Assembly (NCBI GenBank): GCA_018818265.1 | Contig: JAHISN010000057.1 | Location: 1 to 36,835, forward strand | Source: Patescibacteria group bacterium | GTDB lineage: Bacteria > Patescibacteriota > 4484-211 | Reading direction: 5' to 3' | Length of the DNA stretch: 36,835 nt | In this document: in pieces, positions 5,186-27,138 of the stretch | Numbering within the stretch: position 1 is the first letter of the stretch | Layout of the letters: every line of letters starts with the position of its first letter | Notes under the pieces: generated by a model | What the model was told of the DNA's origin: nothing | Database searches by the model: none | The model's input: the letters and a program-made list of their open reading frames with translations, nothing else | Position numbers and translations under genes: made by a program

Positions 5186-7402
5186 CTATCTTCTGGCCTT
5201 TACTCCCAGCTTTGTCTCCAGCATTTTTACAGTTCTTTCGACTAATTTACTCACCTCCTTATGTGATAAAGAGCTTAGGGACGATTGAAAAGTGAGGTGC
5301 AAGGAAACGGATTTTTTGTCAACACCCAAATTATAGTCATCTGTGAAAATATCAAAAATCTTTACTTCCTGCAAAAACTTTCCGCCTTCTTCCTTAATCG
5401 CACGGAGTAAGTTACCTAAGTTATCATTTTTATTAACAATTACTGAAATGTCCTGCTTAATCTCTGGATGCGGAGAAACTGGCAAATACTCACTTCGAGA
5501 TTCACATAGTTTAATAATTTCCTCAAAATTAAGCACGGCGACAGATACTTGCGTATCAACAATCCCGAAATTTTGCAGTACTTTGTCACTGACAAGCCCG
5601 ATCTGTCCGATTTTGCTGTTTTTTGCAGTAATAGCGGCTTGGATATTTTCTGTTAGATAGGGAATCTTATCCGTCAACTCAAAAAGAATACTTTCTACAC
5701 CCAATTTTCTTAACAAATATTCTACTGCGCCCTTAAGCTCGATATATCGTTCCTGAAATCCAGCGTTTCTGGCAATCAAGAGCCCCAAATGTTCTGGTTC
5801 GTCGGGCAGTTCTCCTCTGGCCTTCGGTATTATATGACGGCCGCACTCGAAAAGTTTAAACTCGTTAATACGCTTAAGATTCTCTTGAGCTTTTTCTAGC
5901 AATCCGGGGATTAACGATTGACGCAAGAGCACATGTTCCGAAGACAAGGGGTTTTTAAGTCTTAAGTAATTTGACGCGTCCAGTTCGGCCTTTTGTGCAA
6001 TCACTTCATTAGTAAAACTGTAACTGTAAACCTCGTCGAACCCCAAAGCTGTGAGAACCGATTTAGCTTGACGCCTTACTATGACCCGCTGATTTAGACG
6101 CGGCGTGGTTAAATCCCGCACCGGCAGTGTGCCTATAATTCTATTATAGCCATATAAACGGGCAATTTCCTCCAGTAAGTCTTCTTCAATATTTAAATCG
6201 GCACGGAAAGTGGGAATCGTCACCTCCCAGTTGAACGCTTTACCTTGCTTGTAGTGGCGAACTTTAGTTCGCGTCTCATCGTGAGTGTGAGTAGTCTCAG
6301 TTGAGGTTTCCACCTTTAACCCTAGTGACTCTAGATATTCTTTGCCCCTCGCATCGGGCAAATTAATCCCCAGAAAAGTCCCAACTCGTTCGGGATTCAA
6401 AACAATAGCTTTTTCTTCTCGCGGCTGAGGGTAAACATCAACAACTTCAGATGTCAGTTTAGCGCCGGCATATTCCTGCAATAGTTTAACGCTTTCATTA
6501 AAACCCACTACCGCTAAATTGGGATCCTGATTCTTTTCAAAACGTGTAGAAGCATCGGTGCGTAAACCAAGTTTGCTTGATGTTTTACGGATCGAATACA
6601 TCTCAAAGTTAGCTGATTCCAAGACAATCAACTCTGTTATGTCATTAACCTCTGTTTCTTTACCCCCCATAATACCAGCAATAGCGACGGGTTTCTCGGC
6701 ATCCGCGATCACCATCGTGGTAGGGTTAAGCTGTCTATTCTTGCCATCGATAGTAATAATTTCTTCGCCTTCTCGCGCCTGCCTAACGATAACATTAACA
6801 TTTGACCATTGACCATTGACCATTGACTCAATATCTTTTTTTGCTAAAGGTTCGGATAGGGTTTTTATTTTTAACTTTTCATTTTTTCCGCCAGAGGCGG
6901 ACCAGCCTTTGGCTGGAACTTTTAACTTGCACGCGTTAAATGCGTGCAGCGGTTGCCCAAATTTCAGCATTACATAATTAGTGATGTCAACAACATTATT
7001 AATCGGACGAAGACCCATAGATTTGAGAAACAGCTGCAGCCAGTCAGGCGAATCTGTTACATTTACCTCAAGAATACCGCCGGTATAGCGGAAGCAACTG
7101 GAAGTTTGAATCTCAATGTCTAAAATAGGGGTCACCCCTAAAATAGGGGCGACCCCTAAAATGGGGGCGGCCCCTATTCCTAGACTGTAATACGCTGCAA
7201 CTTCTCGGGCGATTCCCCAGTGACTAAAACAGTCCGGGCGATGTGTTAGAGCTTTATTCTCAATCTCCAGAATGTAATCATCTCCAAACTTTTTAACCGA
7301 TTCTGTCTCGGCCAGTTTTATACTTAACTCGGCGGCAACTTCTTCGGGTGTCTTGCTCAGTTTTGGTAAAAACTCTTTGATGAGGTTATATGATATTTTC
7401 AT
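5186..7402 (-). CDS. pheT: Phenylalanine--tRNA ligase beta subunit (no B2 OB-fold; repeat-derived inserts)
   Basis: THRPDCFSHWGIAREVAA; INNVVDITNYVM..GQPLHAF; DLNIEEDLLEEIARLYGY; C-terminal FDX-ACB domain. Confidence 0.96.
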   Translation of the reverse strand: MKISYNLIKEFLPKLSKTPEEVAAELSIKLAETESVKKFGDDYILEIENKALTHRPDCFSHWGIAREVAAYYSLGIGAAPILGVAPILGVTPILDIEIQTSSCFRYTGGILEVNVTDSPDWLQLFLKSMGLRPINNVVDITNYVMLKFGQPLHAFNACKLKVPAKGWSASGGKNEKLKIKTLSEPLAKKDIESMVNGQWSNVNVIVRQAREGEEIITIDGKNRQLNPTTMVIADAEKPVAIAGIMGGKETEVNDITELIVLESANFEMYSIRKTSSKLGLRTDASTRFEKNQDPNLAVVGFNESVKLLQEYAGAKLTSEVVDVYPQPREEKAIVLNPERVGTFLGINLPDARGKEYLESLGLKVETSTETTHTHDETRTKVRHYKQGKAFNWEVTIPTFRADLNIEEDLLEEIARLYGYNRIIGTLPVRDLTTPRLNQRVIVRRQAKSVLTALGFDEVYSYSFTNEVIAQKAELDASNYLRLKNPLSSEHVLLRQSLIPGLLEKAQENLKRINEFKLFECGRHIIPKARGELPDEPEHLGLLIARNAGFQERYIELKGAVEYLLRKLGVESILFELTDKIPYLTENIQAAITAKNSKIGQIGLVSDKVLQNFGIVDTQVSVAVLNFEEIIKLCESRSEYLPVSPHPEIKQDISVIVNKNDNLGNLLRAIKEEGGKFLQEVKIFDIFTDDYNLGVDKKSVSLHLTFQSSLSSLSHKEVSKLVERTVKMLETKLGVKARR
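6251..6272. repeat. GTAG-initiated REP-like palindrome inside pheT
   Basis: GTAGTG-GCGAACT-TT-AGTTCGC. Confidence 0.65.
6802..6916. repeat. Heptamer arrays plus double hairpin inside pheT
   Basis: (TTGACCA)x3 at 6802-6827; TCCGCCAGAGGCGGA and CCAGCCTTTGGCTGG at 6887-6916. Confidence 0.75.
7121..7176. repeat. 3x 18-bp palindromic tandem repeat inside pheT
   Basis: TAAAATAGGGGTCACCCC / TAAAATAGGGGCGACCCC / TAAAATGGGGGCGGCCCC, encoding GAAPIL-GVAPIL-GVTPIL. Confidence 0.9.
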
Positions 7403-7500
7403 GTTTCAGTTTTCAGTAATCAGTTAAATGTAGTCGTAAAGCTCAAAACGCAAAACTCAAAGTTACAATGCAAAGCTAAAAGCTATCAGCTAACAGCTAT
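7403..7500. repeat. Intergenic degenerate heptamer arrays
   Basis: TTCAGTT TTCAGTA ATCAGTT; AAAGCTC AAAACGC AAAACTC; AAAGCTA TCAGCTA ACAGCTA. Confidence 0.65.
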
Positions 7501-8553
7501 CTAAAATTGCCTTATAAACCTTAAATCCCCACTATAGAAATGCCTAATGTTTTCAATCCCATATTTAACCATCACCAGCCTGTCCAGACCGAAACCCCAA
7601 GCAAATCCGGAATATTTTTGTGGATCTAGCCCTGCTTCAGCCAATACGCTGGGGTGAACCATACCGGCACCAGCCAGTTCCAGCCAGCCACTGCCACCAC
7701 AAGTAGAGCATCTTTCGCCTTCAACTTCGCCTGTACCGAAGCAAATAGCACAATCGAGCAAAAATTCAATACCTGGCTCTACAAAAGGGAAGTGGCTCGG
7801 CTGAATCTTCATTTTAATATCTCTTTGAGAAAACTCGTCTAAAAATTTCTTGAAAGTACCGATCAAGTCTGGCAACTTAATACCCTTATCAACATAAAGA
7901 CCTTCTATTTGATTTAAAGTATGCTCATGGCTGGCATCGGTAGCCTCATGCCGAAAACAGCGGCCAACAATAATTGCTCTAATCGGCGGCTTTTGCCCCA
8001 ACAAAATACGGTGCTGCATGCTGGAAGTATGAGTAATCAAAACTAATTCGTCTTCAGTCCAAAAAGTATCCCACAAGTCACGTGCAGGGTGTTGCGGCGG
8101 CATATTCAAAGACTCGAAGTTATGGTAATCATCATCCACTTCTCTCGCTTCAAACACTTCAAATCCCATGCGGACAAAAATGTCCTCGGCATACTGGCGC
8201 ATTTGAGTAATGGGATGCAAATGTCCTAACTGAAAGTCAGCGCCCGGGGCAGTAAGATCGAAGAACGTCGAGAGCTGAGAGCGAGAGACGGGACTAGGGG
8301 GTAATTCATGAAACTGCTTTTCTCGTTCCTGTAAGGCTTTGGCCAAAGCCTGTTTCAACTCGTTAACAGCTTTCCCCGCCGATGCCCGCTCCTTAGCAGG
8401 TAACTGTGCAATTTGTCGTGTAAGTTTGGTAAATTTTCCTACCTTGCCTAAATACTCTTTTCGCCAAAAAGCGAGCGTGTTGATATCTCTTGTTTTTGCT
8501 AATTCATTAAGCGCCGATTTTTTTATTTGGGTTGCCGTTTTAGTAAAAGTCAT
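7501..8553 (-). CDS. pheS: Phenylalanine--tRNA ligase alpha subunit
   Basis: GHLHPITQ, HPARDLWDTF, THTSSMQ, FPFVEPG, GAGMVHP, GFAWGFGLDRLVM; start set at ATG 8553. Confidence 0.97.
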   Translation of the reverse strand: MTFTKTATQIKKSALNELAKTRDINTLAFWRKEYLGKVGKFTKLTRQIAQLPAKERASAGKAVNELKQALAKALQEREKQFHELPPSPVSRSQLSTFFDLTAPGADFQLGHLHPITQMRQYAEDIFVRMGFEVFEAREVDDDYHNFESLNMPPQHPARDLWDTFWTEDELVLITHTSSMQHRILLGQKPPIRAIIVGRCFRHEATDASHEHTLNQIEGLYVDKGIKLPDLIGTFKKFLDEFSQRDIKMKIQPSHFPFVEPGIEFLLDCAICFGTGEVEGERCSTCGGSGWLELAGAGMVHPSVLAEAGLDPQKYSGFAWGFGLDRLVMVKYGIENIRHFYSGDLRFIRQF

Positions 8554-8646
8554 TGTTGCCCGAAAACATATCCGCAACAAACTAAAGCCTGTCAATACAG
8601 TGAGACTGACAACTAACTACCGAAAACCGTTCACTGATTAACTGAT

Positions 8647-8868
8647 CTACACATCAGAGAACCACCCCCAGAAAATACTCAAGAAGGGTATTACGAAACG
8701 AACAAGAAGATAATAGCAAGCACAAATGCTAACGGTGGATACCAGATATTTAGGTTGAAAGAGTTTAGCGGCAATAACAAGCATATCCGGCTCGTTTTTG
8801 TATTCATAATAACCGAAAAATGTCTGAATAACCGCGAAAAGGATGAGGGTTTGCTGAAATAAAGTCAT
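8647..8868 (-). CDS. Small hypothetical membrane protein
   Basis: 73-aa hydrophobic ORF filling the rplT-pheS gap in operon orientation. Confidence 0.55.
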   Translation of the reverse strand: MTLFQQTLILFAVIQTFFGYYEYKNEPDMLVIAAKLFQPKYLVSTVSICACYYLLVRFVIPFLSIFWGWFSDV

Positions 8869-8948
8869 GTCGATAATTAATTCGGCTTCTTAACTCTGTT
8901 ACTGCAACAAGGATATGAAACGTTGTGCTGCTGTTAAGCTTCAGAAAA

Positions 8949-9296
8949 CTACTCACGCACTTTATCCACTATTTTTCCAAACACACCACTATCGTGCACC
9001 GCAATCTTACTTAGTACTTTTCTGTCAAGTTCTATATTATTCTTCATTAACATATTAATAAACCTGGAGTAAGTCATACCGTGCTGACGGAGCGCCGCGT
9101 TCAGGCGGATAATCCACAATTTTCTGCAATTGCGTTTTCTTGTCCGACGATCCCGATAAGCATGGGACAAAGCATGCATAAGTCCTTCTTTGGCGCCTTT
9201 AATAGTATGACCACGATGCAAACGAAACCCTTTTGCCATCTCCATTATTTTTTTGTGTTTTCGACGGCGCTTAACACCGGTTTTTGTCCGTGGCAC
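8949..9296 (-). CDS. rplT: 50S ribosomal protein L20
   Basis: RRRKHKKIMEMAKGFR; AYRDRRTRKR..RKLWIIRLNAA; YSRFI..L...IELDRKVLS. Confidence 0.97.
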   Translation of the reverse strand: MPRTKTGVKRRRKHKKIMEMAKGFRLHRGHTIKGAKEGLMHALSHAYRDRRTRKRNCRKLWIIRLNAALRQHGMTYSRFINMLMKNNIELDRKVLSKIAVHDSGVFGKIVDKVRE

Positions 9297-9300
9297 GTTT

Positions 9301-9411
9301 CAAATTAAAAGTTAAAAGTCCAAAATTAAAAGTCAAATACCAAAATTTAGAACCGATAACTTTATTCGTTTTTAATTCTTTAATCTCAACTTTTTTAAGT
9401 TTTAACTTTTG
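9301..9411. repeat. Inverted AT-rich heptamer arrays between rpmI and rplT
   Basis: AATTAAA AGTTAAA AGTCCAA AATTAAA AGTCAAA facing TTTTAAT..TTTTAAG TTTTAAC TTTTGAC. Confidence 0.7.
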
Positions 9412-9419
9412 ACAGCTCT

Positions 9420-9620
9420 TCACCCATACGGCAATAACACTTTCAATCTCTTGGCATCTGGCTTACTCATATCTGTTAATCCTTTTTTACGCCTCTTTTT
9501 CTTGGCGCTTTGTTTAGTTTTGAGATGGGAAGTGTTAATATGCCCCATGCGAAGCTTTCCTTTCCCTCCCTTGCTGATTTTTATTCTCTTGGATAATCCC
9601 TTATGTGTTTTAAGTTTCAT
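9420..9620 (-). CDS. rpmI: 50S ribosomal protein L35
   Basis: KLKTHKGLSKRIKIS..GK; HLKTKQSAKKKRR; LLPY; infC-rpmI-rplT synteny. Confidence 0.95.
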   Translation of the reverse strand: MKLKTHKGLSKRIKISKGGKGKLRMGHINTSHLKTKQSAKKKRRKKGLTDMSKPDAKRLKVLLPYG

Positions 9621-9679
9621 AATTTCAGAAGACAGTTAACGCCTAAAAAGCTAACGAAGCTATTAGCTAAAAACTGCCC

Positions 9680-10219
9680 TCATCTCGGTCTAAGAACAAC
9701 AATCAATCGTTTCCCCTCAAACCACGGCGCTTTTTCCGGCTCAGCGACACCCTCTAAGGCTTTTAGCACGCCGGCAAGCTTTTCCTGCCCCAGAGACTTA
9801 TGAACAATTTCTCTCCCAATATAATGCACCACAAATTTAACACTGTTCCCTTCTTCAAGAAAGGCTTGCGCCTGATCAATTCTCATTTTTAGATCATGCT
9901 CAGCAATATTCGGCTTGAGTCTTAATTGCTTTAGCCCACCCTTCTTACTTTGGCGACCTCCGCGTTCCTTTTTTGTTTCTTCGTATAAAAACTTTTTAAA
10001 ATCCAAAACCTTTGCTATCGGCGGATCATTTTTTTGGTTAACCACCACCAAATCTAAGCCTTGGCCTTGTGCAATTTTAATAGCCTCATCCCGCGTCATT
10101 TTACCTAATCCCTTCCCCTCATCAGAAACAACAAACACCTCAGCCGCCTCTATATTAAAATTCGCGGGAAAAAACAATTTCTTCTTTCTTTTCGGTTTCT
10201 GTTTTCTTCTTCTTCCGAT
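9680..10219 (-). CDS. infC: Translation initiation factor IF-3 (probable non-canonical ATC start)
   Basis: NFNIEAAEVFVV; GLDLVVVN....PPIAKVLDFKKFLYE; PNIAEHDL; FLEEGNSVK; start inferred from promoter position. Confidence 0.93.
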   Translation of the reverse strand: MGRRRKQKPKRKKKLFFPANFNIEAAEVFVVSDEGKGLGKMTRDEAIKIAQGQGLDLVVVNQKNDPPIAKVLDFKKFLYEETKKERGGRQSKKGGLKQLRLKPNIAEHDLKMRIDQAQAFLEEGNSVKFVVHYIGREIVHKSLGQEKLAGVLKALEGVAEPEKAPWFEGKRLIVVLRPR

Positions 10220-10225
10220 TAGTGG

Positions 10226-10254
10226 ATTGTAACAGATGTTCGGCGGAGAGGCAA
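10226..10254 (-). promoter_or_regulatory. Sigma70 promoter for infC-rpmI-rplT
   Basis: TTGCCT-17 bp-TACAAT with an extended TG. Confidence 0.65.
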
Positions 10255-10325
10255 GGGTAGACACCAAACAGCCTCATTTGGGCCTCGACAGCAATCGCAA
10301 GGGTGGTGCGCTAGCAGACTAGTAC

Positions 10326-10359: not shown

Positions 10360-10401
10360 ACAGTAATTTCGGCTCCAGCGTCGTTTAGCAAATACGTTAC
10401 T

Positions 10402-12369
10402 CTACAAATCAAGGCTTTTGGCTTCAATTGTAGATTTTATTCTTTCCAGAAATTTATTCACGGTGATTTCACCAACCTTTTTCTCAGTTCTCAGACGGAC
10501 ATTAACTGTTCCACTTTCCTGCTCCTTCTTACCAACCACCAGCATATATGGGACCTTTTGGTTTTGTGCGTCGCGGATTTTGGCCTGCATCGTTTCGTTG
10601 CGACTATTAATTTCTACGCGAATATCCTCATCTTGAAGTTTATTCTTAATCTCTCGAGCATAATCATTTTGTTCTTCTGAAATAGGAATTATTTTAACCT
10701 GAAGAGGCGACAGCCAGACGGGAAAATTGCCTGCGTAAAACTCAATAAGGAAAGCAAAAAACCGTTCAAAAGAACCAATCAGGGCGCGATGAATAACAAA
10801 AGGTTGCTGCTTTTCTCCGTGGTCATCAATATAGGTCATACCAAACTTTCCCGGAAGATTAAAATCAATTTGAATTGTAGAGACACTTTCCTCTCGACCT
10901 AGGGGGTCAAGAGCTTGAACGTCCAGTTTTGGCCCATAAAAGGCAGCCTCCCCCATTTCTTCGTAATACTCAACTCCCGCCTGATCTAAAGCTTTCTTTA
11001 TAGTACTCTCGGCATGCTGCCAGTCTTTACTGGTACCGCAGAATTTGAATTTTTCCTTTTTCGGATCCCCTAGACCTAGCCGATATGTATAATTAGCAAA
11101 CCCAAGATCTTGGTAGAATTTTTGTAACATCTCAAAAACTTCTAAGAACTGGTCCATAAGCTGATCCGGTGTGCAAATAATATGGGCATCATTCTGAGTA
11201 AAGCCTCTTACACGAGCCAGGCCGCTCAGTACACCCGATTTTTCATATCGATAGACAGTGCCAAACTCTCCCAGTTTAAGTGGTAACTCACGGTAACTGT
11301 GCGGCTGGCTGTTATAGACGATTATACCCATGGGACAGTTCATTGGTTTTAAGTAATAAACTTCATCATCTATTTCCACTGGCGCGTACATCGAGTCTTT
11401 ATAAAAATCCAGGTGCCCGGAAGTGGCAAACAGAGTATCTTTTCCAATATGTGGGGTTAGTATATGCTCGTATCCATAGCTTCGCTCCAGCTTGAGCATA
11501 TAGTCTTCCAGCGTGCGGCGGATACGGTAACCATTGGGCAACCATACGGGCAAACCCGCTCCAATCTCAGGGTAAATACCATACAGACCTAACTGCTTAC
11601 CCAGAACACGGTGGTCACGCTTTTTGGCCTCCTCCTGCAACTTGAGATATTCAGCCAATTCTTTTTGAGAGGGAAAAGCGGTACCGTAGATGCGGGTGAG
11701 CATTTTGTTCTTTTCATCGCCCCGCCAGTAGGCGCCAGCTACGGAAAGTAGTTTGAAGGCTTTTATTTCACCAGTAGAGTTAACATGCGGGCCAGTACAG
11801 AGGTCTACAAATGGTTCGACGGGTTCACCACAAATGCCTTCAACAGGCTCAGGACAGGTCCCTTCGACCCCTTCGGCAAGCTCAGGGCAGGCGGGTTCGA
11901 TGGGTTGGACAGGCTCACCACGGGCAGGCTCACCGCAGGCAGGCTCGGGCCGGGCCGGGCAAGAAAAGGGACAGGTAGAACAGGTTTGGGTTTGAGAAAT
12001 TTTGCCCGCTTGCGGTGAGCTTGCCGAACCCGTCCAGTATACTGTTGGCTCGTCTCCCTTTTGGCGTATTTCATCTAACCATTCCTGCTTGTAGGGGTTA
12101 TTTTCGAAAAGTTCGCGGGCTTTGTCGAACGAGATTTCTTCGCGGGTAAAAGACAGATCAGCATCAATAATTTTTTGCATCTCCGCTTCTATTTTAGGAA
12201 AGTCCTCCTCGGAGACCTTATGGCTACCGGGGTCAAAATCAAAATAGAATCCATTTTCAATCGCCGGCCCCATAGCCATTTTAATCCCGGGAAAAAGCCT
12301 TAGCATAGCTTGAGTGAGGATATGTTCTGCTGAGTGACGGAGACTTTGGAGCTTATCTTCTTTCGGCAT
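10402..12369 (-). CDS. thrS: Threonine--tRNA ligase (no TGS domain; 72-aa insert)
   Basis: RHSAEH; FVDLCTGPHV; AYWRGD; KRDHR; LKPMNCP; RVRGFTQNDAH; AAFYGPKLD; IHRALIGSFERF. Confidence 0.97.
   Translation of the reverse strand: MPKEDKLQSLRHSAEHILTQAMLRLFPGIKMAMGPAIENGFYFDFDPGSHKVSEEDFPKIEAEMQKIIDADLSFTREEISFDKARELFENNPYKQEWLDEIRQKGDEPTVYWTGSASSPQAGKISQTQTCSTCPFSCPARPEPACGEPARGEPVQPIEPACPELAEGVEGTCPEPVEGICGEPVEPFVDLCTGPHVNSTGEIKAFKLLSVAGAYWRGDEKNKMLTRIYGTAFPSQKELAEYLKLQEEAKKRDHRVLGKQLGLYGIYPEIGAGLPVWLPNGYRIRRTLEDYMLKLERSYGYEHILTPHIGKDTLFATSGHLDFYKDSMYAPVEIDDEVYYLKPMNCPMGIIVYNSQPHSYRELPLKLGEFGTVYRYEKSGVLSGLARVRGFTQNDAHIICTPDQLMDQFLEVFEMLQKFYQDLGFANYTYRLGLGDPKKEKFKFCGTSKDWQHAESTIKKALDQAGVEYYEEMGEAAFYGPKLDVQALDPLGREESVSTIQIDFNLPGKFGMTYIDDHGEKQQPFVIHRALIGSFERFFAFLIEFYAGNFPVWLSPLQVKIIPISEEQNDYAREIKNKLQDEDIRVEINSRNETMQAKIRDAQNQKVPYMLVVGKKEQESGTVNVRLRTEKKVGEITVNKFLERIKSTIEAKSLDL
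11812..12027. repeat. Nested palindromic repeat cluster (TTCGrCArGCTCA family) in frame within thrS
   Basis: GGTTCGACGGGTTCACCAC, CCTTCAACAGGCTCAGG, CCCTTCGGCAAGCTCAGGG, CAGGCTCACC x2, and inverted GGTGAGCTTGCCGAACC. Confidence 0.85.
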
Positions 12370-13334: not shown

Positions 13335-14552
13335 CTATCTTGATAACGCGCTGAAGCCCTGCCCGTCCGGCAGGCGGGGCGTCACTTCAGGACGTAGATA
13401 TTTATAGTCCGTGCGTGACCATCTCACCACATATTTCTTCAGCATCCCGCATGGTTGAAGATGATTTTTGAACCGGCGCAAACCGGGAAAACCAAGATCC
13501 TGTTCAAAGTTAATAAATTTGACTTTACCCTCCTTCGCAGAAAGCCCCGTCCGTAAGGGCGGGGATGAATGCGATGAGGGTAACCCTTCGTAGCTCGAAG
13601 AGCGTAGTAGGGTACGCTTCGGAGGGTTCCGCCCGACGAAGCATGTGGAGGAGCCACGGCTGTAAGGCCGTGGGGCTCCACTTGTAAACGAATCCGCGAG
13701 ACACCAAAACAAATATTCGGAAATCCCAGCAAACTTGGTATCCGTAGTAAAGTGATGAATCAAAAGAGTTTGTTGAGGAATTAATTCGACTACGGCAAAT
13801 GCTCGAATCTGTCCCTCCATTTCTACAGTACATAAAATCAATTCTAACTTATCCCAAAACAGAAAGAGTTTCTCCAGACCGGCATTATCCCTCTGCCAAC
13901 TTAGCACCATTTCATTTGAATCGAAGATCTTTTCGGCAGTAATTTGTTGCTGCAAATCCCAGCATTTTTCTATTAACGATTTTTCCTGGGGCGGCCTGCG
14001 GCCGCCCCCATAATTCCTATGAGGGCGACCCCCTTCGGGGGTCGCCCCCAAAAAGCACGTAATACCAGGTTTATACTTTCTACGACACAAATTAACTTTT
14101 CGCCGCACCGCGGCATACTTCCGACCCTTCAAATCAATAATCTCAGCCGCATCATAAAGATAATCGCTATTTGCTTCATCAGTGCTAATCTCGAATTGAC
14201 CTCTGTCTGCCAGCCGTTTCACCGTGATTCTGGGCAGAAACGATAGACAGTCCGTGCTCAGTTCCTCCTTAACATAAAGGAGCAGTTCTCTTGTTGATTT
14301 GTCAACCTGATTGACTCCTAGAAAACTAGCCAAATTCACCCCACTCACCGAATCTTGCATAACAACTACCATATTGCCATTGAGATTTGATACTTTAATC
14401 GTGTTGTTATCGTCCAGCCCAAATAAGCTGCTAAATTGAAAATCCGAATAGCTACTATTTAGCTGCGAATTAAATTCGTTGATAATTGCTCGGTGTTTTA
14501 GACCAAGCGGTTCAAAATTGGGAAATGGGGAAAGGAGTAGAGTAGAGGACAT
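13335..14552 (-). CDS. DUF2156 (LPG synthase C-terminal/GNAT-like) protein with repeat inserts
   Basis: YSDFQFSSLF; DYLYDAAEIIDLKGRKYAAVRRKVN; FINFEQDLGFPGLRRFK..LQP..MLKKY. Confidence 0.78.
   Translation of the reverse strand: MSSTLLLSPFPNFEPLGLKHRAIINEFNSQLNSSYSDFQFSSLFGLDDNNTIKVSNLNGNMVVVMQDSVSGVNLASFLGVNQVDKSTRELLLYVKEELSTDCLSFLPRITVKRLADRGQFEISTDEANSDYLYDAAEIIDLKGRKYAAVRRKVNLCRRKYKPGITCFLGATPEGGRPHRNYGGGRRPPQEKSLIEKCWDLQQQITAEKIFDSNEMVLSWQRDNAGLEKLFLFWDKLELILCTVEMEGQIRAFAVVELIPQQTLLIHHFTTDTKFAGISEYLFWCLADSFTSGAPRPYSRGSSTCFVGRNPPKRTLLRSSSYEGLPSSHSSPPLRTGLSAKEGKVKFINFEQDLGFPGLRRFKNHLQPCGMLKKYVVRWSRTDYKYLRPEVTPRLPDGQGFSALSR
13347..13378. repeat. Palindromic element CGCGCTGwAGCCCTGCC...CCGGCAGGCGGG, copy 2
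   Basis: Matches 2112-2143. Confidence 0.75.
13529..13680. mobile_element. ~150-bp non-autonomous double-hairpin element (IS200/IS605-end-like), inserted in frame
   Basis: Subterminal hairpins GCCCCGTCC-GTAA-GGGCGGGG and CCACGGC-TGTAAG-GCCGTGG; interrupts the DUF2156 domain just before the INxEQDLG motif. Confidence 0.55.
13988..14047. repeat. Two GC-rich palindromes in frame in the DUF2156 gene
   Basis: GGGGCGGCCTGCGGCCGCCCC and GGGCGACCCCC-TTC-GGGGGTCGCCC. Confidence 0.8.
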
Positions 14553-14635: not shown

Positions 14636-14656
14636 GGGGCGGCCTACGGCCGCCCC
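14636..14656. repeat. Intergenic copy GGGGCGGCCTACGGCCGCCCC (possible terminator)
   Basis: One mismatch to 13988-14008; lies downstream of a small minus-strand operon. Confidence 0.75.
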
Positions 14657-17800: not shown

Positions 17801-17806
17801 AGAAAT

Positions 17807-19422: not shown

Positions 19423-22400
19423 ATGAAAGATAAAAACCTGCCCGAAATAAATTATACTTCAGCCACCGTTCTCATTGCTGGAGCGGCTAACTTTGTCGGT
19501 TATCATCTAGCAGAATCTTTACTCATCTCCGATATTGCTGTTATTGGCATTGATAGTCTTATCACCGGATCAGAAGACATCATCACCAAGCTTTACAAAT
19601 ATCCACGCTTCAGCTTTTTTAAAGCCAATATCAACCAGCCCTTACCGGCCGCTCTTTATAAAGAGGATATTTCCCACATCGTTCATTTAGCTAATATCGA
19701 AGCGTGTGCCGAGCGTGGGATTTTACAACTCAACGAACTTCTAACCAATTCATTCGGTGTTAAAAATCTGCTTGACTTAAGCTTGGACAAAAAATCTGCC
19801 TTTATCTTTGCTTCAACAATTAATATTTACCAAGGGTTGGCCTCAACCACCAGTCTAACCCATTATTTTAACGGCGGAGATCTGGAGGACCGCCTCACCT
19901 ACGCCGAAGCCAAACGCTATGCCGAAAATCTCTGCCATGAATATGCCCAACTCTACAACACCGACATTCGCATTGCCCGTTTGTCGGAAATTTATGGCCC
20001 CCACATGAGCCTGAATCGGGGTACACCCTTTGCTCAACTTCTAGCCCAATTTTTAGCAGGGCAAAACTTGACTGTTTATGGCGATGGTTCTGATCATCTC
20101 TATCTAACTTATATTAGCGATACTATTTATGGTTTGGTAAAACTAATCTTCGCCCCTCCAGAAGTTGTCAGCCAAGGCATTTTCTACTTTGTTCAGCCAC
20201 AACAAGTAACTTTACTAGAAACCGCCCATGCTTTAGCTCATATTGACACACCACCACGCCAAATTGATCACGAATCCGCCCCTAAAATCAGCGCCGCCCT
20301 TAAGCCGCCGCAAATCGACCTTTCGCGCAGTAAGAAGGACCTTTACTGGGAAGCCAAAATCACTCTAGAAGATGGTTTCAAGCGCACCTGCGACTATTTC
20401 AACGCTCTCCCATCAATAGTCCCACCCGCCGAGCCTCAGGAAAAACCATCTGGAGAGGAAACGCCTGTCTCCCCTTCCACAGGGAGCCCTACACAAAAAG
20501 AAAGGAATTTTTCACAATACCGAGCAACTTTGCAGAAAACTACCGAAAGACTGGTCCAACCAGAATTGGAAACAACCCCACCCCAGCCCTCACTGCCTCA
20601 ACCATCTCTGGGAACTCGGCTAAAGGAGGTTCTTAAAACTCCTAGGCCACCCCACAAAACCGATCCTACAACAGAAACACACGGATGGCTAGATTTAAAA
20701 AAACAAGAGCAAGGTAAAGCCACTACAGCCCCTCATGATTCTAGGCAGAACTCAGCGACGCTTAGCCCCGCGCAAAAAACAGTTCCTGCTACTTCAACAC
20801 AAAAACACACACCCGAAGAGGCAGCTGAAATGGGCTATCTCGAAAGCCTTAAGCGTCCTTCATTATGGCAACGCTGGCGAAAAAGCATCTTTGTTTTTCT
20901 TACGATCGTGTGTTTCTTTCTGGCGCCCATAGCCCGGCCTCTTTACTTATCGTTCAATAGCTGGCAAACTGCTAAATCTGCCTGGGCGGCTCTCAAAATC
21001 GGTGATACACAAACAGCATCAGTCGAACTTTTAAAATTACAAGAATCCACCGCCGCACTCAAAACAAATTTAGATTCCTTACGGTGGCTAACATACTTTT
21101 TGGGTCAGAAAGAGCGCTATCAAGTCACACAGCAACTACTTTCGGCCAGCTCTTTTGCCATTGAAGGAGTATATCTATCTGTAGAAGCCCTTCAATCGGC
21201 CGAGGAACTACTTAGCACTGTGCAATCCGCATCTCCACCACTAGGAGGCGAAGAAGACAAAGAGATTAAGGAAACCGTCGAAATACTTATCAATAACATT
21301 ATTCTTAATTTTGATTCTGCCACTCAAAGATTTACTCTTGCCGAAACGGAGATAGACGGAACGGATCTGTCGATTTTTCCGGAATCACTAAAGCATATGG
21401 CAGAAGAAGGGAAATCTTTCTTAACCAATCTTAACCAAAATCTACCCAATGCCCAAGTTCTGTTAAAACAAACCCCCATTCTTCTTGGCCTAGATGAGCC
21501 GCATACCTTCTTAATTTTACTTCAGAATAATAGCGAACTCCGCGCCACCGGAGGTTTTATTGGCAGTTACGCCGTCGCAGACATGGTCCGGGGAAAACTA
21601 ACCCGCTTAAAAGTTGACGACATTTACAATCCTGACGGTCTGTTGGAAAACACAGAACCCGCGCCACAGCCTTTACAAGATAACTTGGGTGTTGATGAAT
21701 TAGGTATTCGCGATGCTAACTGGTGGCCGGATTTTGCGACCAGTGCCTCAAAGATCATTTCACTCTACGAGCAAGCTACTAAGGAAAAAGTGAAAAGTGT
21801 CATCGGTATTAATCTTTCAACTTTACAGAACCTATTAGCACAAATGGGACCGGTCTCCATACCTGACTATCAAGAAAGAATCTCTGCCGACAACCTGTTT
21901 GAAAGGGCTGAATTTCATAGCGAAGTTGGGTTTACACCCGGTTCGGACCAGAAAAAACGATTCTTAACCGCTTTAACACAAGAAATTTTAGCCAATTTAC
22001 TTAGCGCATCAACCGATACTAATTTAGGACTTAATAAATCAGCCTGGCAAGCAGTTGTCACAACTTTCGGAGAAGGTCTGAGCGGAAACGACATCTATTT
22101 ATTCTCTTCCTCAAGCGAGCTTGCCGACGCCTATAGTCAATTAGGATGGAATGGGAACCTAAAGCCTTTGCCTGTAGAAAAAGACTTTATCGCGGTCGTT
22201 GACTCAAATATCGGCGGCAACAAAGCTAACTTTTGGGTCAACAGAAAAACAAACTATCGTCTGGATATTGACAGAGAGGGGAATTTAAGTGGGGTTTTAA
22301 CTGTTAAATGGACTCACACCGGCACATCCGGCACTTGGCCCGGTGGCGACTACAAAAACTTTGTGCGTATTTATGTTCCCAAATATGCCAAACTACAAGA

Positions 22401-22749
22401 GGCCGAGGGATTTGTTTCCCAGCTTGAACCTTACACCGAATTTGAATACAAAGTCTTTTCTGGGATTGTTGAGGTTCCCGTCAATTCATCTCATCAAATA
22501 ACTTTAAAATACAACCTGCCGCCGGAAGTCGGCTTTAAAGATAAGAACACCTATGAGTTAACCGTGCGCCGACAAGCGGGTTTAGTAGGAGAAAGCTTTG
22601 TCTTAACCGCAGATCTACCAGCATTTCTACCAGCCCAAACACTTTCATCAGGAGAAATTGACAATAACTTAAATAAAATTTTGTGGGAAACTATACTAAA
22701 CACGAACAAGAGCACCGCTTTACTTGTAGCCGATCAAAAAGTAAAGTAG
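19423..22749 (+). CDS. Fusion: NAD-dependent epimerase/dehydratase-like domain, low-complexity linker, TM, DUF4012 domain
   Basis: IAGAANFVGYHL and YAEAKRYAE; Pro/Thr/Gln linker; TM; LLQNNSELRATGGFIGS, IRDANWWPDF, DSNIGGNKAN. Confidence 0.85.
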   Translation: MKDKNLPEINYTSATVLIAGAANFVGYHLAESLLISDIAVIGIDSLITGSEDIITKLYKYPRFSFFKANINQPLPAALYKEDISHIVHLANIEACAERGILQLNELLTNSFGVKNLLDLSLDKKSAFIFASTINIYQGLASTTSLTHYFNGGDLEDRLTYAEAKRYAENLCHEYAQLYNTDIRIARLSEIYGPHMSLNRGTPFAQLLAQFLAGQNLTVYGDGSDHLYLTYISDTIYGLVKLIFAPPEVVSQGIFYFVQPQQVTLLETAHALAHIDTPPRQIDHESAPKISAALKPPQIDLSRSKKDLYWEAKITLEDGFKRTCDYFNALPSIVPPAEPQEKPSGEETPVSPSTGSPTQKERNFSQYRATLQKTTERLVQPELETTPPQPSLPQPSLGTRLKEVLKTPRPPHKTDPTTETHGWLDLKKQEQGKATTAPHDSRQNSATLSPAQKTVPATSTQKHTPEEAAEMGYLESLKRPSLWQRWRKSIFVFLTIVCFFLAPIARPLYLSFNSWQTAKSAWAALKIGDTQTASVELLKLQESTAALKTNLDSLRWLTYFLGQKERYQVTQQLLSASSFAIEGVYLSVEALQSAEELLSTVQSASPPLGGEEDKEIKETVEILINNIILNFDSATQRFTLAETEIDGTDLSIFPESLKHMAEEGKSFLTNLNQNLPNAQVLLKQTPILLGLDEPHTFLILLQNNSELRATGGFIGSYAVADMVRGKLTRLKVDDIYNPDGLLENTEPAPQPLQDNLGVDELGIRDANWWPDFATSASKIISLYEQATKEKVKSVIGINLSTLQNLLAQMGPVSIPDYQERISADNLFERAEFHSEVGFTPGSDQKKRFLTALTQEILANLLSASTDTNLGLNKSAWQAVVTTFGEGLSGNDIYLFSSSSELADAYSQLGWNGNLKPLPVEKDFIAVVDSNIGGNKANFWVNRKTNYRLDIDREGNLSGVLTVKWTHTGTSGTWPGGDYKNFVRIYVPKYAKLQEAEGFVSQLEPYTEFEYKVFSGIVEVPVNSSHQITLKYNLPPEVGFKDKNTYELTVRRQAGLVGESFVLTADLPAFLPAQTLSSGEIDNNLNKILWETILNTNKSTALLVADQKVK

Positions 22750-23132
22750 TAATCCAATCCTGGAATAATTTGAACCAAAATTCTCATAATAAGGTGTATA
22801 GATGCAGAAAGAGCAATACCGGCAAGAGCATAAATTATCGTTGACCGCGCCAATTCCGCCTGTTTCACATCATCACCCGCAGTAGTGTATTTGAATCCGC
22901 CGATAATAAGAAAAATTATTCCCGCCAGAACGGCAAAATATGGCATCCAACTAATAATTCTTACGACTAATTTAACCGCCTCGTCGAGCGCCGTAGCAGG
23001 ATCACACAGAGGGTTTCCTTCACACAACTGGGCGCTCACCGCGCTAGGAGAAAAGAGAAAAATAAACACCGTAAGCGAAAAAACAAATATTCTGAAGATA
23101 GACTTGGAAAGTAAACTAGGCTTTAAAAACAT
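22734..23132 (-). CDS. CPR-type pilin-like membrane protein (TrbC/VirB2-like)
   Basis: Signal peptide ending AVSAQ; IIFLIIGGFKYTTAGDD...AELARSTIIYALAGI. Confidence 0.8.
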   Translation of the reverse strand: MFLKPSLLSKSIFRIFVFSLTVFIFLFSPSAVSAQLCEGNPLCDPATALDEAVKLVVRIISWMPYFAVLAGIIFLIIGGFKYTTAGDDVKQAELARSTIIYALAGIALSASIHLIMRILVQIIPGLDYYFTF

Positions 23133-23137
23133 AAACT

Positions 23138-23809
23138 TCACTCCTCCCACACTTTCTGCGGGGCGGTAGGGGCAAATAGCTTAACTAATCCAGAAAGAGC
23201 TAGGGCAACAAGAGCAGAAAAACCCATGGCTATAAGGGTAGTAAAATCTAAAATATGAGCCCCCCGACCGGCGTTTTGGACGATACCGGCAAAAGGCTTT
23301 ACAAATACATCCGAAACTTCAAAAATCCAAAGGACTATTTCGCTGGAAGTAGCGGCCGTGAGCAATTTAAAGAGAAGTCTTAAAGCAAGAAACCCTTCCA
23401 GCAAACCCAAACAGTAAAGGATTATCTGATGGGACTTTTTAATAAACTTTTGTCTCTTGAACTCAGAAATTTTAACAGTACCAGGCACCGATTCGAAACC
23501 AGACTGGGGGAATGGCTGTGGAACAACTTGTGATGAAAGGATAGGAACTTGCGGTTGTGTCGAGGCTACCGGTTGGTTAAGCGGATACTGCAGGGGGGGC
23601 GCCTCAAAGGATGATTGTGACTGAAACGGAACTTCTGGCGACACTGCCGATTGCGCTGGCTCTTGAATTCGAGACAACTCCGAGTCGGGCGCATTTCCAG
23701 CGACGCTGCCAACTTGCGGCGGAGTCACCATGCCACTACCTGTTATGCTAGGCGTTGCGGAAAAACCGGGCATGTTTGAATTATCAGTCCCTTCATTTTT
23801 ATCGTCCAT
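23138..23809 (-). CDS. YggT-like membrane protein with long disordered N-terminus
   Basis: LEGFLALRLLFKLL; FEVSDVFVKPFAGIV; DFTTLIAM; promoter TTGACA-18-TACTAT at 23821-23850. Confidence 0.75.
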   Translation of the reverse strand: MDDKNEGTDNSNMPGFSATPSITGSGMVTPPQVGSVAGNAPDSELSRIQEPAQSAVSPEVPFQSQSSFEAPPLQYPLNQPVASTQPQVPILSSQVVPQPFPQSGFESVPGTVKISEFKRQKFIKKSHQIILYCLGLLEGFLALRLLFKLLTAATSSEIVLWIFEVSDVFVKPFAGIVQNAGRGAHILDFTTLIAMGFSALVALALSGLVKLFAPTAPQKVWEE

Positions 23810-23866
23810 TTATACTTTTGATAGTACAATATGCCCAACAGTACTGTCAACAGCCTGAACTGATAG

Positions 23867-23920
23867 AGGGTTTAACCCTGTCACTATAATAAAATAAAAA
23901 AGTTGACAGGGTTAAACCCT
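23867..23920. repeat. REP-doublet-like inverted repeat
   Basis: Perfect 17-bp inverted repeat AGGGTTTAACCCTGTCA / TGACAGGGTTAAACCCT; each arm is itself near-palindromic. Confidence 0.85.
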
Positions 23921-23980
23921 ATTTCAAGCACAAGAAACTCCCTCTTGTTTAGACTCGTCTCAATATGTTAGCATTTTTCC

Positions 23981-24247
23981 ATGCTAAAACTCCTGGACTT
24001 CTCCGCCACTTGGTGTCCGCCCTGCCAGCTAATGATTCCTGTTGTTGAAACAATAAAAGAGGAATTTAAAGGCAAGCTGGAGGTGGAAGAAATAAATATC
24101 GAGGAAAATCAGGCCAAGGCGCAAGAATTTTCCGTTATGAGTATCCCCACTTTTGTGATTCTGAAAGAAGGGAAAGAAGTTGATAGAAAAATGGGAGCAA
24201 TTGGGGAAAGTGCATTTAGAGAGTGGATCGCTAAATTTTTGAACTAG
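23981..24247 (+). CDS. trxA: Thioredoxin
   Basis: DFSATWCPPCQ; VMSIPTFV cis-Pro loop. Confidence 0.9.
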   Translation: MLKLLDFSATWCPPCQLMIPVVETIKEEFKGKLEVEEINIEENQAKAQEFSVMSIPTFVILKEGKEVDRKMGAIGESAFREWIAKFLN

Positions 24248-24253
24248 ACACTC

Positions 24254-25330
24254 ATGAAAATCGCAATCAACGGTTTTGGTCGTATTGGCCGGACCACCCT
24301 CAAAACCATAATCTCACCCCACGACTGGGGGCGTATTCGTTTAAACAAGAAGTTCAAACGTGACGCAATTGAAGTTGTCGCCATTAACAACTTAGGCGGT
24401 CTTGACGAAACCTCTGCTTATTTGTTCAAACACGACTCAGTTTACGGGACTTATCCGGATCAAGTCCAACTAGTCAAAAACGGCACTCACCTTCGTGTAG
24501 GGAGCAGAGAAATTCCTTTCTATGCTGAGGCTGACCCGTCCAATTTACCATGGGGCGAGCTTGACATAGACATTGTTCTGGAATGTACCGGCGCTTTTAC
24601 CGAGTTTAGTAAAGCAGAAGCCCACATTAAAGCTGGGGCAAAAAGAGTAATCATATCCGCCAATGGCAAGGGTGCTGGAACCAGCATTGTTATCGGTACC
24701 GATTCCTATAAAGATTGGAAAGAACAAAAAGAAAAGCCCCAGGTAATAGCTAACTGTTCCTGCACCACTAACTGCGCTGGCCCGCTAATGCAGTTACTGC
24801 ACAGCCATTATCAAATATTAAAGGCCCAACTAATCACTGTACACGCAATCACCTCTACCCAAAGTTTGCTAGATAACAAAATGAAAGACCTAAGAGGCTC
24901 TCGTTCTGCATTTGCTTCTATTATCCCCCAATCCACAGGAGCGGCCAAAGCAGTGGAACGCATCATTCCGGACCTAAAAGGTAAAGTGAGTGGGTCTGCT
25001 TTTAGAGTGCCCGTAATTAACGGCTCAGTTTTAGAAGTAGTCGCACAAGTGTCCAAAGAAACGACTGCCGAGGAAATTAATAATATGCTTATTAACGAAT
25101 CCGAAAATGAATATTTAGGAATAATAGAGTGCTATCCGGACGGCCTTGTATCAAGTGACATCATTGGACTACCAATCTCAACCATTATTGATCTTCCTTT
25201 AACCGAAGTTCTGGACCTCCCGAATGTTAAAGATGAAAACTTAGTTAAAGTCGTTGCGTGGTACGACAATGAATACGCCTACACCTGCAGATTAGTCGAA
25301 CTCGCGCAAAAAGTAGGAGAAACTTTTTAA
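24254..25330 (+). CDS. gap: Type I glyceraldehyde-3-phosphate dehydrogenase
   Basis: INGFGRIGR; SCTTNC; STGAAKAV; RVPV; WYDNE. Confidence 0.95.
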   Translation: MKIAINGFGRIGRTTLKTIISPHDWGRIRLNKKFKRDAIEVVAINNLGGLDETSAYLFKHDSVYGTYPDQVQLVKNGTHLRVGSREIPFYAEADPSNLPWGELDIDIVLECTGAFTEFSKAEAHIKAGAKRVIISANGKGAGTSIVIGTDSYKDWKEQKEKPQVIANCSCTTNCAGPLMQLLHSHYQILKAQLITVHAITSTQSLLDNKMKDLRGSRSAFASIIPQSTGAAKAVERIIPDLKGKVSGSAFRVPVINGSVLEVVAQVSKETTAEEINNMLINESENEYLGIIECYPDGLVSSDIIGLPISTIIDLPLTEVLDLPNVKDENLVKVVAWYDNEYAYTCRLVELAQKVGETF

Positions 25331-25363
25331 AAAGATAGCCGCCGAATCAACCCCAATTCACTC

Positions 25364-25467
25364 TTAGTATGATACACTAGTGTATCATACTAAAACTATC
25401 CCTAGTAAAAACACATCCCCCCCCACAAAAAGTCAGCTAGTTGGTATGATAAACTAGTCTATCATAC
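25364..25467. repeat. Pair of long palindromes GTATGATAnACTAGTnTATCATAC
   Basis: Perfect 30-bp palindrome at 25364-25393; 24-bp copy with one mismatched pair at 25444-25467. Confidence 0.9.
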
Positions 25468-25548
25468 TAGATAAGCACATGGTACGTTCTCAAGTTCCAA
25501 CTCCGATTGCAACACCTCCCAGAGAAGCTAATGTGCTAAAATCGGATT

Positions 25549-27138
25549 ATGGTCATCAACTACAGCCACATCCGGTCTCTGGCGCTAATTTGTCTTGTTA
25601 TTCTCACTCTCCATCTTTCTTTCATGGCGCAAAATTTAAAAGAAAACCAAATTCTGTATGACTTCCAACCGCCCATAGCTTCCACCCCAAACCCGACATC
25701 AACACTGACGCTGACGCTGACGCTGACCCCGACTCCCAATCCCACGCCTAACGCCAACTACACCAAGCGCTTGACTGATCCTTGCTACAAAAATTGGCGT
25801 GCCAAGATTCCACAGGAATTGGCTCTAACCGAATATCTTTCCGTTATTAGTATTCCCGAACAAAAACACTACTTATTTAAAGACAAAGAACTGATTAAAA
25901 CCTACACCATTTCCACCGGCGCTGGAGAAAATGAAATGCCCGAAGGAATTTGGAGAGTAGGGGAGATTAGAGACTCTGGGTTAGGCGGCATTTACGGCCC
26001 ACGACTATTGTTTCTGGAGGTTTGGGACAAGAACCAATTTATTGAAACTACGCGGGCATTTCACGGGACGAACGAGCCAGAGAAAATCGGCACCAACTTC
26101 GGTCTCGGATGCGTCTATCACTATAATGAAGATATTTTAGAGATCTACGATCTTCTCCCTCCGGAAACATTAGTAGTAACTACTTACGATGACGAACCCG
26201 CCAACTGGGAAATTTTAATTGGGGGTACAGTAGTATTGTCTCGCGGGGTGGATGAGCGCATCCGCAAATATCAAAATGTGAATTACCCATGGGAGAAAAT
26301 TGATCGTTTAACCCAATCGGCCGATTTAACTATCATTAATCTTAAGTCGGCTTTTGTTGAAGACTGCCCTTATGTTTCCGACAAACCCGTTTTTTGTTCT
26401 CAAACAGCCTATGTCAATGGCTTGACTATTAATAACATAGATTTAGTCAGCTTGGCAGGCAATCACCTCGGCGACTATGGCATTGATGGTATTGAGTACA
26501 CACTGGACGTACTTAACAAGAATAATATTCTTTTCACTGGCGCAGGGAAAGATTCTGCTGAAGCTTACCAGCCACAGATTATCGAACTTGTTAACAGAGT
26601 ACCATGCGCCGCTCCTACAGAGCTATGCAGAGCAACAGAGGAGACTCTAAAGGTTGGTTTCTTCTCCTTTAATACCGTAGCCGGCACATCTCCCGCCGCA
26701 AAAGAAGACTCCACCGGTGTCGCCTGGTGGAATGAACAGAAGGTTAGTGAAATTATCAAGTCACTAACCCCCCACACCGACATCATCATCGCCATGCCTA
26801 ACTGGGGGCCAGAATACACTCACCAGCCCACTGACGACCAAGTTAGCATGGGACACCTGCTTGTCGACTGGGGTGTAGACATTGTTGCCGGAGATCAAGC
26901 CCATTGGATACAAAAATATGAAGATTATCAGGACGGCGTTATCTTTTATGGACTAGGAAATTTAATTTTTGACCAGATGTGGTCGGAAAAGACAAGACAA
27001 GGCATTTTAGTCAAAATAGTAGTTGATAAGGATAAGAACTTCAGCTACGAAAGTATACCGACAATAATAGAAGATTATGCCCAGCCGAGATTGGCAAATT
27101 CGGAAGAGTCGAAAACTATCCTACGACAAATTGAGTAA
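25549..27138 (+). CDS. Membrane-anchored L,D-transpeptidase (YkuD) and CapA/PGA_cap fusion
   Basis: N-terminal TM, PT linker, ISTG..PEG.W, FHGT..GCV; SLAGNHLGDYG, WGPEY, FYGLGNLIFDQ. Confidence 0.85.
   Translation: MVINYSHIRSLALICLVILTLHLSFMAQNLKENQILYDFQPPIASTPNPTSTLTLTLTLTPTPNPTPNANYTKRLTDPCYKNWRAKIPQELALTEYLSVISIPEQKHYLFKDKELIKTYTISTGAGENEMPEGIWRVGEIRDSGLGGIYGPRLLFLEVWDKNQFIETTRAFHGTNEPEKIGTNFGLGCVYHYNEDILEIYDLLPPETLVVTTYDDEPANWEILIGGTVVLSRGVDERIRKYQNVNYPWEKIDRLTQSADLTIINLKSAFVEDCPYVSDKPVFCSQTAYVNGLTINNIDLVSLAGNHLGDYGIDGIEYTLDVLNKNNILFTGAGKDSAEAYQPQIIELVNRVPCAAPTELCRATEETLKVGFFSFNTVAGTSPAAKEDSTGVAWWNEQKVSEIIKSLTPHTDIIIAMPNWGPEYTHQPTDDQVSMGHLLVDWGVDIVAGDQAHWIQKYEDYQDGVIFYGLGNLIFDQMWSEKTRQGILVKIVVDKDKNFSYESIPTIIEDYAQPRLANSEESKTILRQIE

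Follow-up and report, generated by a model that had tools for sequence, protein, structure and literature searches.

Small hairpin-repeat families between and within genes, pheT included, of a Patescibacteria-like genome

A preliminary description of a 36.8-kb stretch of DNA (hereafter the window, which is the complete contig C7 of a genome that we call G000) had proposed that short palindromic repeats invaded several of its protein genes, always in frame. We followed up this proposal computationally and conclude that the inserts are probably copies of several small hairpin-repeat families multiplying in G000, some of which persist in tolerant loops of proteins such as PheT. The earlier picture was essentially right in kind, but plural and partly trivial: the hairpin families are several and mutually independent, a candidate nuclease goes with each of them, and they are overwhelmingly extragenic. 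The G000 genome (1.19 Mb in 89 contigs, 43% GC, about 98% complete) is Patescibacteria-like and comes from groundwater; its relatives belong to a single phylum with genome sizes of 0.5-2 Mb, and among the matches listed, the named records with G000 repeats were mainly Patescibacteria. The gene content of the window is ordinary housekeeping (pheS/pheT, thrS, infC, rplT, map, gap, pnp and a UvrD-type helicase).

The repeats reported at several places in pheT were confirmed at three sites, as listed here.

5186-7402, minus strand: pheT, 738 amino acids (aa), with three repeat sites.
7117-7180, minus strand: site 1, three tandem 18-nucleotide (nt) hairpin units of the family B type (AGGG-N5-CCCT plus an A/T spacer).
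6887-6916, minus strand: site 2a, a 30-nt double hairpin (family C), exactly ten codons.
6794-6868, minus strand: site 2b, a 75-nt insert (25 residues), part of which is a short array of tandem words.
6227-6307, minus strand: site 3, an insert in the B5 domain with a GTAG-headed repetitive extragenic palindrome (REP) hairpin at 6250-6278 (family A).

We aligned pheT with 16 orthologs; G001 and G002 are genomes of two other genera of the same family. Sites 2 and 3 were missing in the 16 orthologs, save for the site 3 hairpin in G001. Site 2 (residues 163-203) lies inside the B3_4 domain, and a DNA alignment of the sister genomes, the comparison of empty with filled sites that had been suggested earlier, showed that it consists of an exact 30-nt insertion and a 75-nt one relative to G001 and G002, both of which are empty. 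At site 3 (residues ~369-388), G001 has a REP of like type in the same position, with a stem that is different yet still complementary, and G002 has none. Site 1 (residues 74-95) is a variable linker of which about 3 x 6 residues come from the repeats, with no net length gain, and G001 has three 18-nt units of its own there.

We then considered where these inserts would lie in the folded protein. An AlphaFold model of PheT made from the 17-sequence alignment had a mean predicted local distance difference test score (pLDDT) of 84.5, and its only long segments with pLDDT below 50 were residues 165-186 and 369-388, i.e. sites 2 and 3; the site 1 block of residues 81-90 averaged 64, with neighbours above 90. 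As the preliminary description had expected of loops, the inserts coincide with low-confidence coil segments of an otherwise confident model, and the prediction fits inserts that are loops tolerated on folded domains. It is very improbable that the inserts are instead functional, lineage-specific loops maintained by selection. In pheT and thrS, two or three genera do have inserts at shared sites, with hairpin stems preserved, but the units are far commoner between genes, the frame and orientation in which one unit is read vary from host to host, orthologous pheT sites encode different peptides in different genera, and the insert segments are those of low confidence in the PheT model.

We also asked whether the inserts could be artefacts of metagenome-bin assembly, in which repeats were collapsed or wrongly joined to genes. 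In three groundwater runs, the summed depth of the 30-nt core was far above that of its flanks and many contigs diverged exactly at the core edges. In run X1 the core reached a summed depth of about 2530 against 25-32 on the flanks and no single contig bridged the 30-nt element, as an artefact would have it; contigs of runs X2 and X3 covered only parts of the stretch, none bridging. On the other side, two X1 contigs matched the element with zero mismatches, each crossing one junction into pheT, though X1 may be the source sample, in which case these contigs are not independent. Furthermore, both flanks continue one ortholog-aligned open reading frame (ORF), and separately assembled sister genomes have related inserts at the same sites. 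We therefore regard an assembly artefact as hardly credible.

A self-comparison of G000 gave 766 short repeated regions totalling 61 kb (~5% of the DNA), and stems of at least 7 bp numbered 888 against 417 in shuffles. The census of intragenic and intergenic copies that the preliminary description had proposed showed a repeat density of 18.4% outside ORFs of at least 100 aa and 2.05% inside them, a 9-fold extragenic bias. In ORFs of at least 150 aa, 110 repeat regions keep a distance of 90 nt or more to either end; for 55 of them, spread over 41 ORFs, the family has intergenic members as well. Pfam domains (E <=1e-5) were present in 37 of the 39 host ORFs outside the window. The hosts are for the most part housekeeping genes and include Leu/Val- and Ile-type tRNA synthetases, an ArgRS anticodon domain, GatB, LepA, MnmA, KsgA, TsaD, RecR, UvrA, UvrB, UvrC, topoisomerase I (TopA), DNA ligase, a 5'-3' exonuclease, AsnB, glycosyltransferases and one REP-associated tyrosine transposase (RAYT) gene itself. 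Families A to E were defined by k-mer and motif counts, as follows.

Family A: GTAG-headed REPs; 201 hits against 27-48 in shuffled sequence; 145 intergenic, 31 deep in ORFs.
Family B: AGGG-N5-CCCT hairpins in 18-nt tandem arrays; 84 hits against 11 shuffled; 46 intergenic, 32 deep in ORFs.
Family C: 30-nt double hairpin; 39 hits (some scored on both strands) against 0 shuffled; 32 intergenic, 6 deep, in 5 genes.
Family D: CCTGCC...GGCAGG hairpin; 37 hits against 0 shuffled; 24 intergenic, 5 deep in ORFs.
Family E: 61-nt element; 10 core hits against 0 shuffled; 7 intergenic, 1 deep in ORFs.

Family B arrays lie inside pheT, MnmA, AsnB, UvrB and other genes. G000 also has many tandem arrays of 7- to 8-nt "words".

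The preliminary description found no transposase in the window, and none of the 35 window ORFs that we scanned matched a transposase family. It had placed a trans-acting nuclease elsewhere. Candidates indeed exist outside the window, namely two intact RAYT genes and 13 small GIY-YIG genes, but they point to several enzyme/repeat pairs and not to one system: RAYTs are flanked by families A and B, GIY-YIG genes lie near families C, D and E, and four-helix genes sit in word arrays. The RAYT-type genes are on contigs C21 and C10, and a third Y1 gene is truncated by a contig end; PF01797 exceeded its cut-off at two G000 places. Against NCBIfam REP_Tyr_transpos, the C21 RAYT scored 91.8 bits (cut-off 80) and the C10 RAYT 47 bits, below the cut-off, with E 2.4e-12. 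Both have the HUH and Y-x3-NP motifs. A PDB sequence search with the C10 RAYT as query gave 0 matches.

Within 250 nt, the C21 RAYT has 1+5 family A heads in its flanks, against 5.8% of random places, and the C10 RAYT has 3+3 family B units, against 2.1%. Two GTAG-headed REPs stand in frame within the C21 RAYT itself, near aa 151 and aa 207, after the HUH motif (aa 63-67) and before the Y (aa 250). Family A shows the marks of REPs (GTAG head, palindrome, high copy number and mainly extragenic location); family B, without a GTAG head, shows only the hairpin, copy-number and flanking ones. The best homologs of the C10 RAYT are in G001 (52% identity) and G002 (43%), and these orthologs (L231 and L233, respectively) each have 2+2 flanking units, 18-nt spaced, in the same architecture with genome-specific stems. 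All 14 of 14 unit dimers in G001, its pheT ones included, have the G001 stem. No other evidence here speaks as strongly as this covariation of RAYT and unit over three genera for family B as the probable cognate repeat of the C10 RAYT. The stretch of contig C21 that was noted in passing lies at C21:2568-3479 (L031 1402-2313), and the window itself has family B units between genes.

23861-23926, no strand: inverted pair of family B units, intergenic; the unit is the one that flanks the C10 RAYT.

G000 has 13 stand-alone GIY-YIG ORFs of 81-151 aa above the Pfam GIY-YIG cut-off, eight of which are within 600 nt of a tRNA gene. Family D repeats were nearby in 5/13 (1.8% at random), family E in 3/13 (0.7%) and family C in 1/13, all three well in excess of the random expectation; families A and B were near 0/13. 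NCBIfam offered no specific or informative family for the 13 proteins, and their nearest solved chains are UPF0213 proteins. At C10:20200-20700 (L246), a GIY-YIG gene has an intact tRNA-Pro on one side and, on the other, a partial second copy of that tRNA whose D-loop region holds the double hairpin; the arrangement resembles a cassette that has lodged in a tRNA gene. Small GIY-YIG ORFs were present at 11 of 80 double-hairpin loci of other genomes and at 1 of 55 control loci, as scored with a profile from the 13 G000 proteins for ORFs within 600 nt of the hairpin and with controls that had twice as much DNA. As for four-helix genes of the 23S rRNA IVP family, G000 has seven, bracketed by inverted word arrays, and one of the seven is a weak match in the window. 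The weak match (ORF 32851-33443, E 8e-6, below cut-off) is bracketed by two 35- to 51-nt word-built repeats, and six stronger four-helix genes elsewhere in G000 likewise lie between inverted word arrays.

The exact double-hairpin pattern was present in 22 copies in G000, in 0 copies in three family-level relatives and in 7 of 41 sampled genomes, where a reversed-pattern control gave 0. Scanning one genome per species yielded at least 122 double-hairpin loci, in Patescibacteria, Omnitrophota, Ignavibacteria, Planctomycetota, Bdellovibrionota, Gammaproteobacteria, Elusimicrobia, Verrucomicrobiota, Leptospira and others. The copies of different genomes have the core alone in common, with unrelated flanks. 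In the second hairpin, base pair seven covaries (T-A 54, C-G 28, T-G 2), with no mismatch in 84 copies. For seventeen of the 84, the reading frame stays open over 60 codons or more to either side, and 10 of these 17 frames have Pfam matches: PilM, CCA-adding enzyme (twice), TGT, TsaD, HisRS, Pol I, MiaA, Obg and a CCG-domain protein. In G000, the genic double hairpins have one orientation in 5/5 and one frame in 4/5. A composite in which the double hairpin lies inside the loop of a GTAG-headed REP hairpin occurs in at least 11 near-identical copies (C3, C16, C32, C53, C55, C70, C75, C86 and others), suggesting that it was multiplied as one unit. RAYT-like matches occurred in 22 of the 41 sampled genomes of the phylum, 6/7 relatives with the double hairpin and 16/34 without it; this co-occurrence says little either way, and we dropped it as evidence.

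Nine of the 84 copies are within 60 nt of a predicted tRNA. The idea that many copies split tRNA D-loops was unsupported, as in silico removal of the core followed by ARAGORN gave a spanning tRNA for 1/84. This single restored tRNA, in another genome, is also all that could be set beside the suggestion that the inserts are removed from RNA or protein in the manner of an intron or intein, for which we found nothing in favour. The units, of 18-75 nt, show no signature of an intein or intron, and their frames stay open, which would not be needed if they were removed. Searching Rfam with the whole window gave no match at the gathering score; positions 6780-7200 gave four weak matches only (E 0.12-0.34), which we took as chance. 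Such removal is extremely unlikely.

We next weighed whether the repeats could have spread without a dedicated nuclease, by short-homology recombination, gene conversion or replication slippage involving word-like flanks and hairpins, with the nuclease genes as fellow travellers. The empty pheT site of G001 and G002 already has the short word-like sequence that is seen beside further copies of this double-hairpin subfamily; slippage can extend tandem 18-nt arrays, and genome-specific stems at an orthologous pheT site would fit gene conversion. These processes leave unexplained a 30-nt core that has unrelated flanks in many phyla, and both the joint change of RAYT and flanking unit in three genera and the enrichment of GIY-YIG ORFs beside the double hairpin in unrelated genomes argue against them. 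Spread without a nuclease thus seems unlikely, though less so than the other alternatives.

We prefer the reading in which hairpin families multiply with the help of nucleases. Most copies would settle between genes, and a minority in tolerant loops or linkers, where they would be read through as extra peptide. Enzyme and repeat can be paired in at least three ways. The C21 RAYT (an HUH/Y1 transposase) would act on the family A GTAG-headed REPs, as at pheT site 3; the C10 RAYT on the family B 18-nt AGGG-N5-CCCT arrays, as at pheT site 1; and the small stand-alone GIY-YIG nucleases on families C, D and E, which include the pheT site 2 double hairpin and a hairpin in the tail of the DUF2156 gene. 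By analogy with E. coli TnpA-REP and the Ssn nucleases, these enzymes may cut single-stranded hairpin DNA, by which the repeats would be copied, and some families may still be mobile today. Genes broken by inserts would be purged, and frame would be kept either by the 18- or 30-nt unit length or by the loss of inserts of other lengths.

The statement that no host gene is frameshifted held: the pheT, thrS and DUF2156 ORFs are all unbroken. The selection for frame-preserving inserts that had been built on it stands only in part. The frames are intact, but two main units, of 18 and 30 nt, cannot shift the frame, so that "always in frame" is partly built in, and it is partly survivorship because intact ORFs are the survivors.

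Outside pheT, the genes named in the preliminary description gave mixed results. The inserts and their intergenic counterparts are listed below.

~11818-12021, minus strand: thrS insert of 66-69 residues that is rich in GC and has inverted repeats within it.
13983-14051, minus strand: DUF2156 gene insert 1, 23 aa, two GC-rich hairpins with 9-bp and 11-bp stems.
13533-13685, minus strand: DUF2156 gene insert 2, ~51 residues, a mosaic of small hairpins.
13338-13415, minus strand: DUF2156 gene C-terminal extension, ~25 residues, through a family D hairpin at 13347-13378.
14636-14656, no strand: intergenic 21-nt GC hairpin, twin of 13988-14008 in DUF2156 insert 1 (95% match).
2112-2143, no strand: intergenic family D hairpin, 88% match to 13347-13378 in the DUF2156 tail.

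The three sites claimed for the DUF2156 gene were all recovered, the two inserts and the C-terminal extension being present in 0/10 orthologs. Both intergenic sequences cited as the same or related units proved to be twins of segments in this gene. The hairpin at 2112-2143 has about 10 near-identical copies genome-wide, and for two hairpins of insert 2, other contigs hold an intergenic twin (30 nt at 100% and 41 nt at 97.6%). Single-strand fold z-scores against shuffles were -3.13 for the thrS insert, -4.80 and -5.46 for DUF2156 inserts 1 and 2, and -1.30, not significant, for the C-terminal tail. For thrS, the claim held as far as a hairpin-rich insert is concerned: it is missing in 10/11 aligned orthologs, with a shorter version at the same site in G001. 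Its membership in a genome-wide family was rejected, as a search for this peptide type found 1 ORF only in G000. The CapA/YkuD fusion, named as a probable further host, was also rejected, as it has no hairpin, no repeat match and no domain-splitting insert. Upstream of it are two AT-rich, perfect or near-perfect palindromes of 28-32 nt (25364-25395 and 25444-25471), with about 10 recurrences on other contigs, almost all between genes; they resemble an operator or a further repeat family more than a GC hairpin.

Several points weigh against the reading that we prefer. The thrS insert has no multi-copy family in G000. The units at pheT site 1 are a GC-rich subtype that differs from the exact unit flanking the C10 RAYT. 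Families C, D and E were found on both sides of the GIY-YIG gene in 0/13 cases, flanking being one-sided only, and the double hairpin adjoins just 1/13 of the G000 GIY-YIG genes. The low pLDDT of the pheT inserts is partly due to alignment columns present in the query alone, and the gene calls of the census come from a longest-ORF heuristic. Finally, "always in frame" describes the copies in intact ORFs and is no measured rate.

A bolder reading is conceivable, and we offer it tentatively, as slightly less likely than not. Several independent nuclease/hairpin replicators (two RAYT/REP pairs, the GIY-YIG-linked hairpins and the four-helix word arrays) may jointly rewrite loops of essential proteins; the 30-nt double hairpin may be a mobile element that crosses phyla and is linked with small GIY-YIG cassettes at tRNA genes; and the repeat at pheT site 1, rewritten in each genome, may reflect ongoing concerted evolution in an essential gene.

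Other arrangements of repeats were noticed in the window. Family E 61-nt copies at 4-64 and 4582-4642 (also 116-156) are inverted and 95% complementary, and the pair at 4-64 and 4582-4642 brackets a 4.5-kb block from nusB to pilM; the second copy lies at the beginning of a 206-aa ORF without a Pfam match, whose start codon may be mis-set. The pnp gene is bracketed by tandem 8-nt word arrays plus a 31-nt inverted pair (29316-29497, 31628-31670 and 32037-32082). The members of this pair are 94% complementary and 2.5 kb apart, and the arrangement is like that of the word arrays around four-helix genes.

If our reading is true, ultra-small genomes of uncultured bacteria are not repeat-poor, and selfish hairpins are tolerated even in aminoacyl-tRNA synthetases and repair enzymes, which would give a concrete path from non-coding DNA to peptide. 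The three-genus covariation of RAYT and unit and the exact 30-nt filled/empty site would then be clean natural experiments on element movement, and annotators and alignment builders should expect such inserts in marker genes of candidate phyla.

Intragenic REPs and Rickettsia palindromic elements (RPE) are already published. In a limited literature collection, we found no published description of the 30-nt double hairpin, no relevant paper for its core DNA words or for the insert peptides, and no paper on candidate-phyla bacteria under RAYT or REPIN. The original descriptions of RPEs are reportedly the papers of Ogata. In G000, as in RPE-bearing genomes, unrelated genes carry in-frame palindromic repeats that their orthologs lack. 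According to the available text of Minnick (2024, PMC10969869), which summarises in-frame RPEs, the likeness extends to housekeeping hosts, a small genome, compatibility with the fold and a proposed role as a source of new peptide. Unlike RPE-1 (~150 bp; PMC10969869, same text), the units here are 18-75 nt and there are candidate nuclease genes flanked by repeats. By analogy, then, the G000 repeats may work like RPEs, which is not to say that they belong to the RPE family.

The nearest parallel in gene hosts is with the GTAG and CGTC REPs that Di Nocera et al. (2013, PMC3733652), in the portions of that survey considered here, report within known genes, with replication and repair functions frequent among these, equating RPE-4 and RPE-6 with CGTC REPs. 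Like those REPs, the G000 repeats include tagged hairpins that are mostly extragenic with a genic minority. The intragenic REPs in those portions of PMC3733652 are often dimers or clusters that encode 20-30 residues, in hosts such as uvrA, and the overlap in hosts here covers UvrA, UvrB, UvrC, RecR, TopA, DNA ligase and the 5'-3' exonuclease. The same portions list Proteobacteria, Cyanobacteria, Chloroflexi, PVC and others, with Patescibacteria not listed; unlike the REPs described there, G000 also has the untagged families B, C and D, and aminoacyl-tRNA synthetases as hosts.

With REP/RAYT systems and REPINs, so far as the sections available of Nunvar (2010, PMC2817692), Bertels & Rainey (2011, PMC3116915) and Quentin et al. 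(2018, PMC6006769) describe them, G000 shares a single-copy HUH/Y1 gene flanked by its own REPs, and REP and RAYT sequences that change together between lineages. In-frame REPs inside RAYT genes are reported in the same sections of Quentin et al. (PMC6006769), where they are the hallmark of subclass 2.4; the C21 RAYT has two such REPs and, with motif letters slightly off the published consensus, is a candidate member of this subclass. Unlike these systems, family B consists of 13-nt hairpins that recur in strict 18-nt tandem arrays and lack a GTAG head, its intragenic share is high (32/84 motif hits deep in ORFs), and its host is a ~1.2-Mb Patescibacteria-like bacterium.

Lastly, the GIY-YIG genes recall the Ssn single-strand nucleases, GIY-YIG enzymes of the cd10448 clade flanked by NTS/SRM hairpin repeats in a repeat-gene-repeat architecture that has been likened to an insertion sequence (Chenal et al. 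2025, PMC11893778, as far as the text considered here goes). The words "intragenic", "tRNA" and "Patescibacteria" do not occur in the main text of that paper (PMC11893778) as available. Unlike the Ssn arrangement in PMC11893778, flanking in G000 is one-sided, and the likeness is one of gene size and context. In common with the Ssn genes as presented there, those of G000 are small and single-domain, with adjacent hairpin repeats that have many further copies in the genome.

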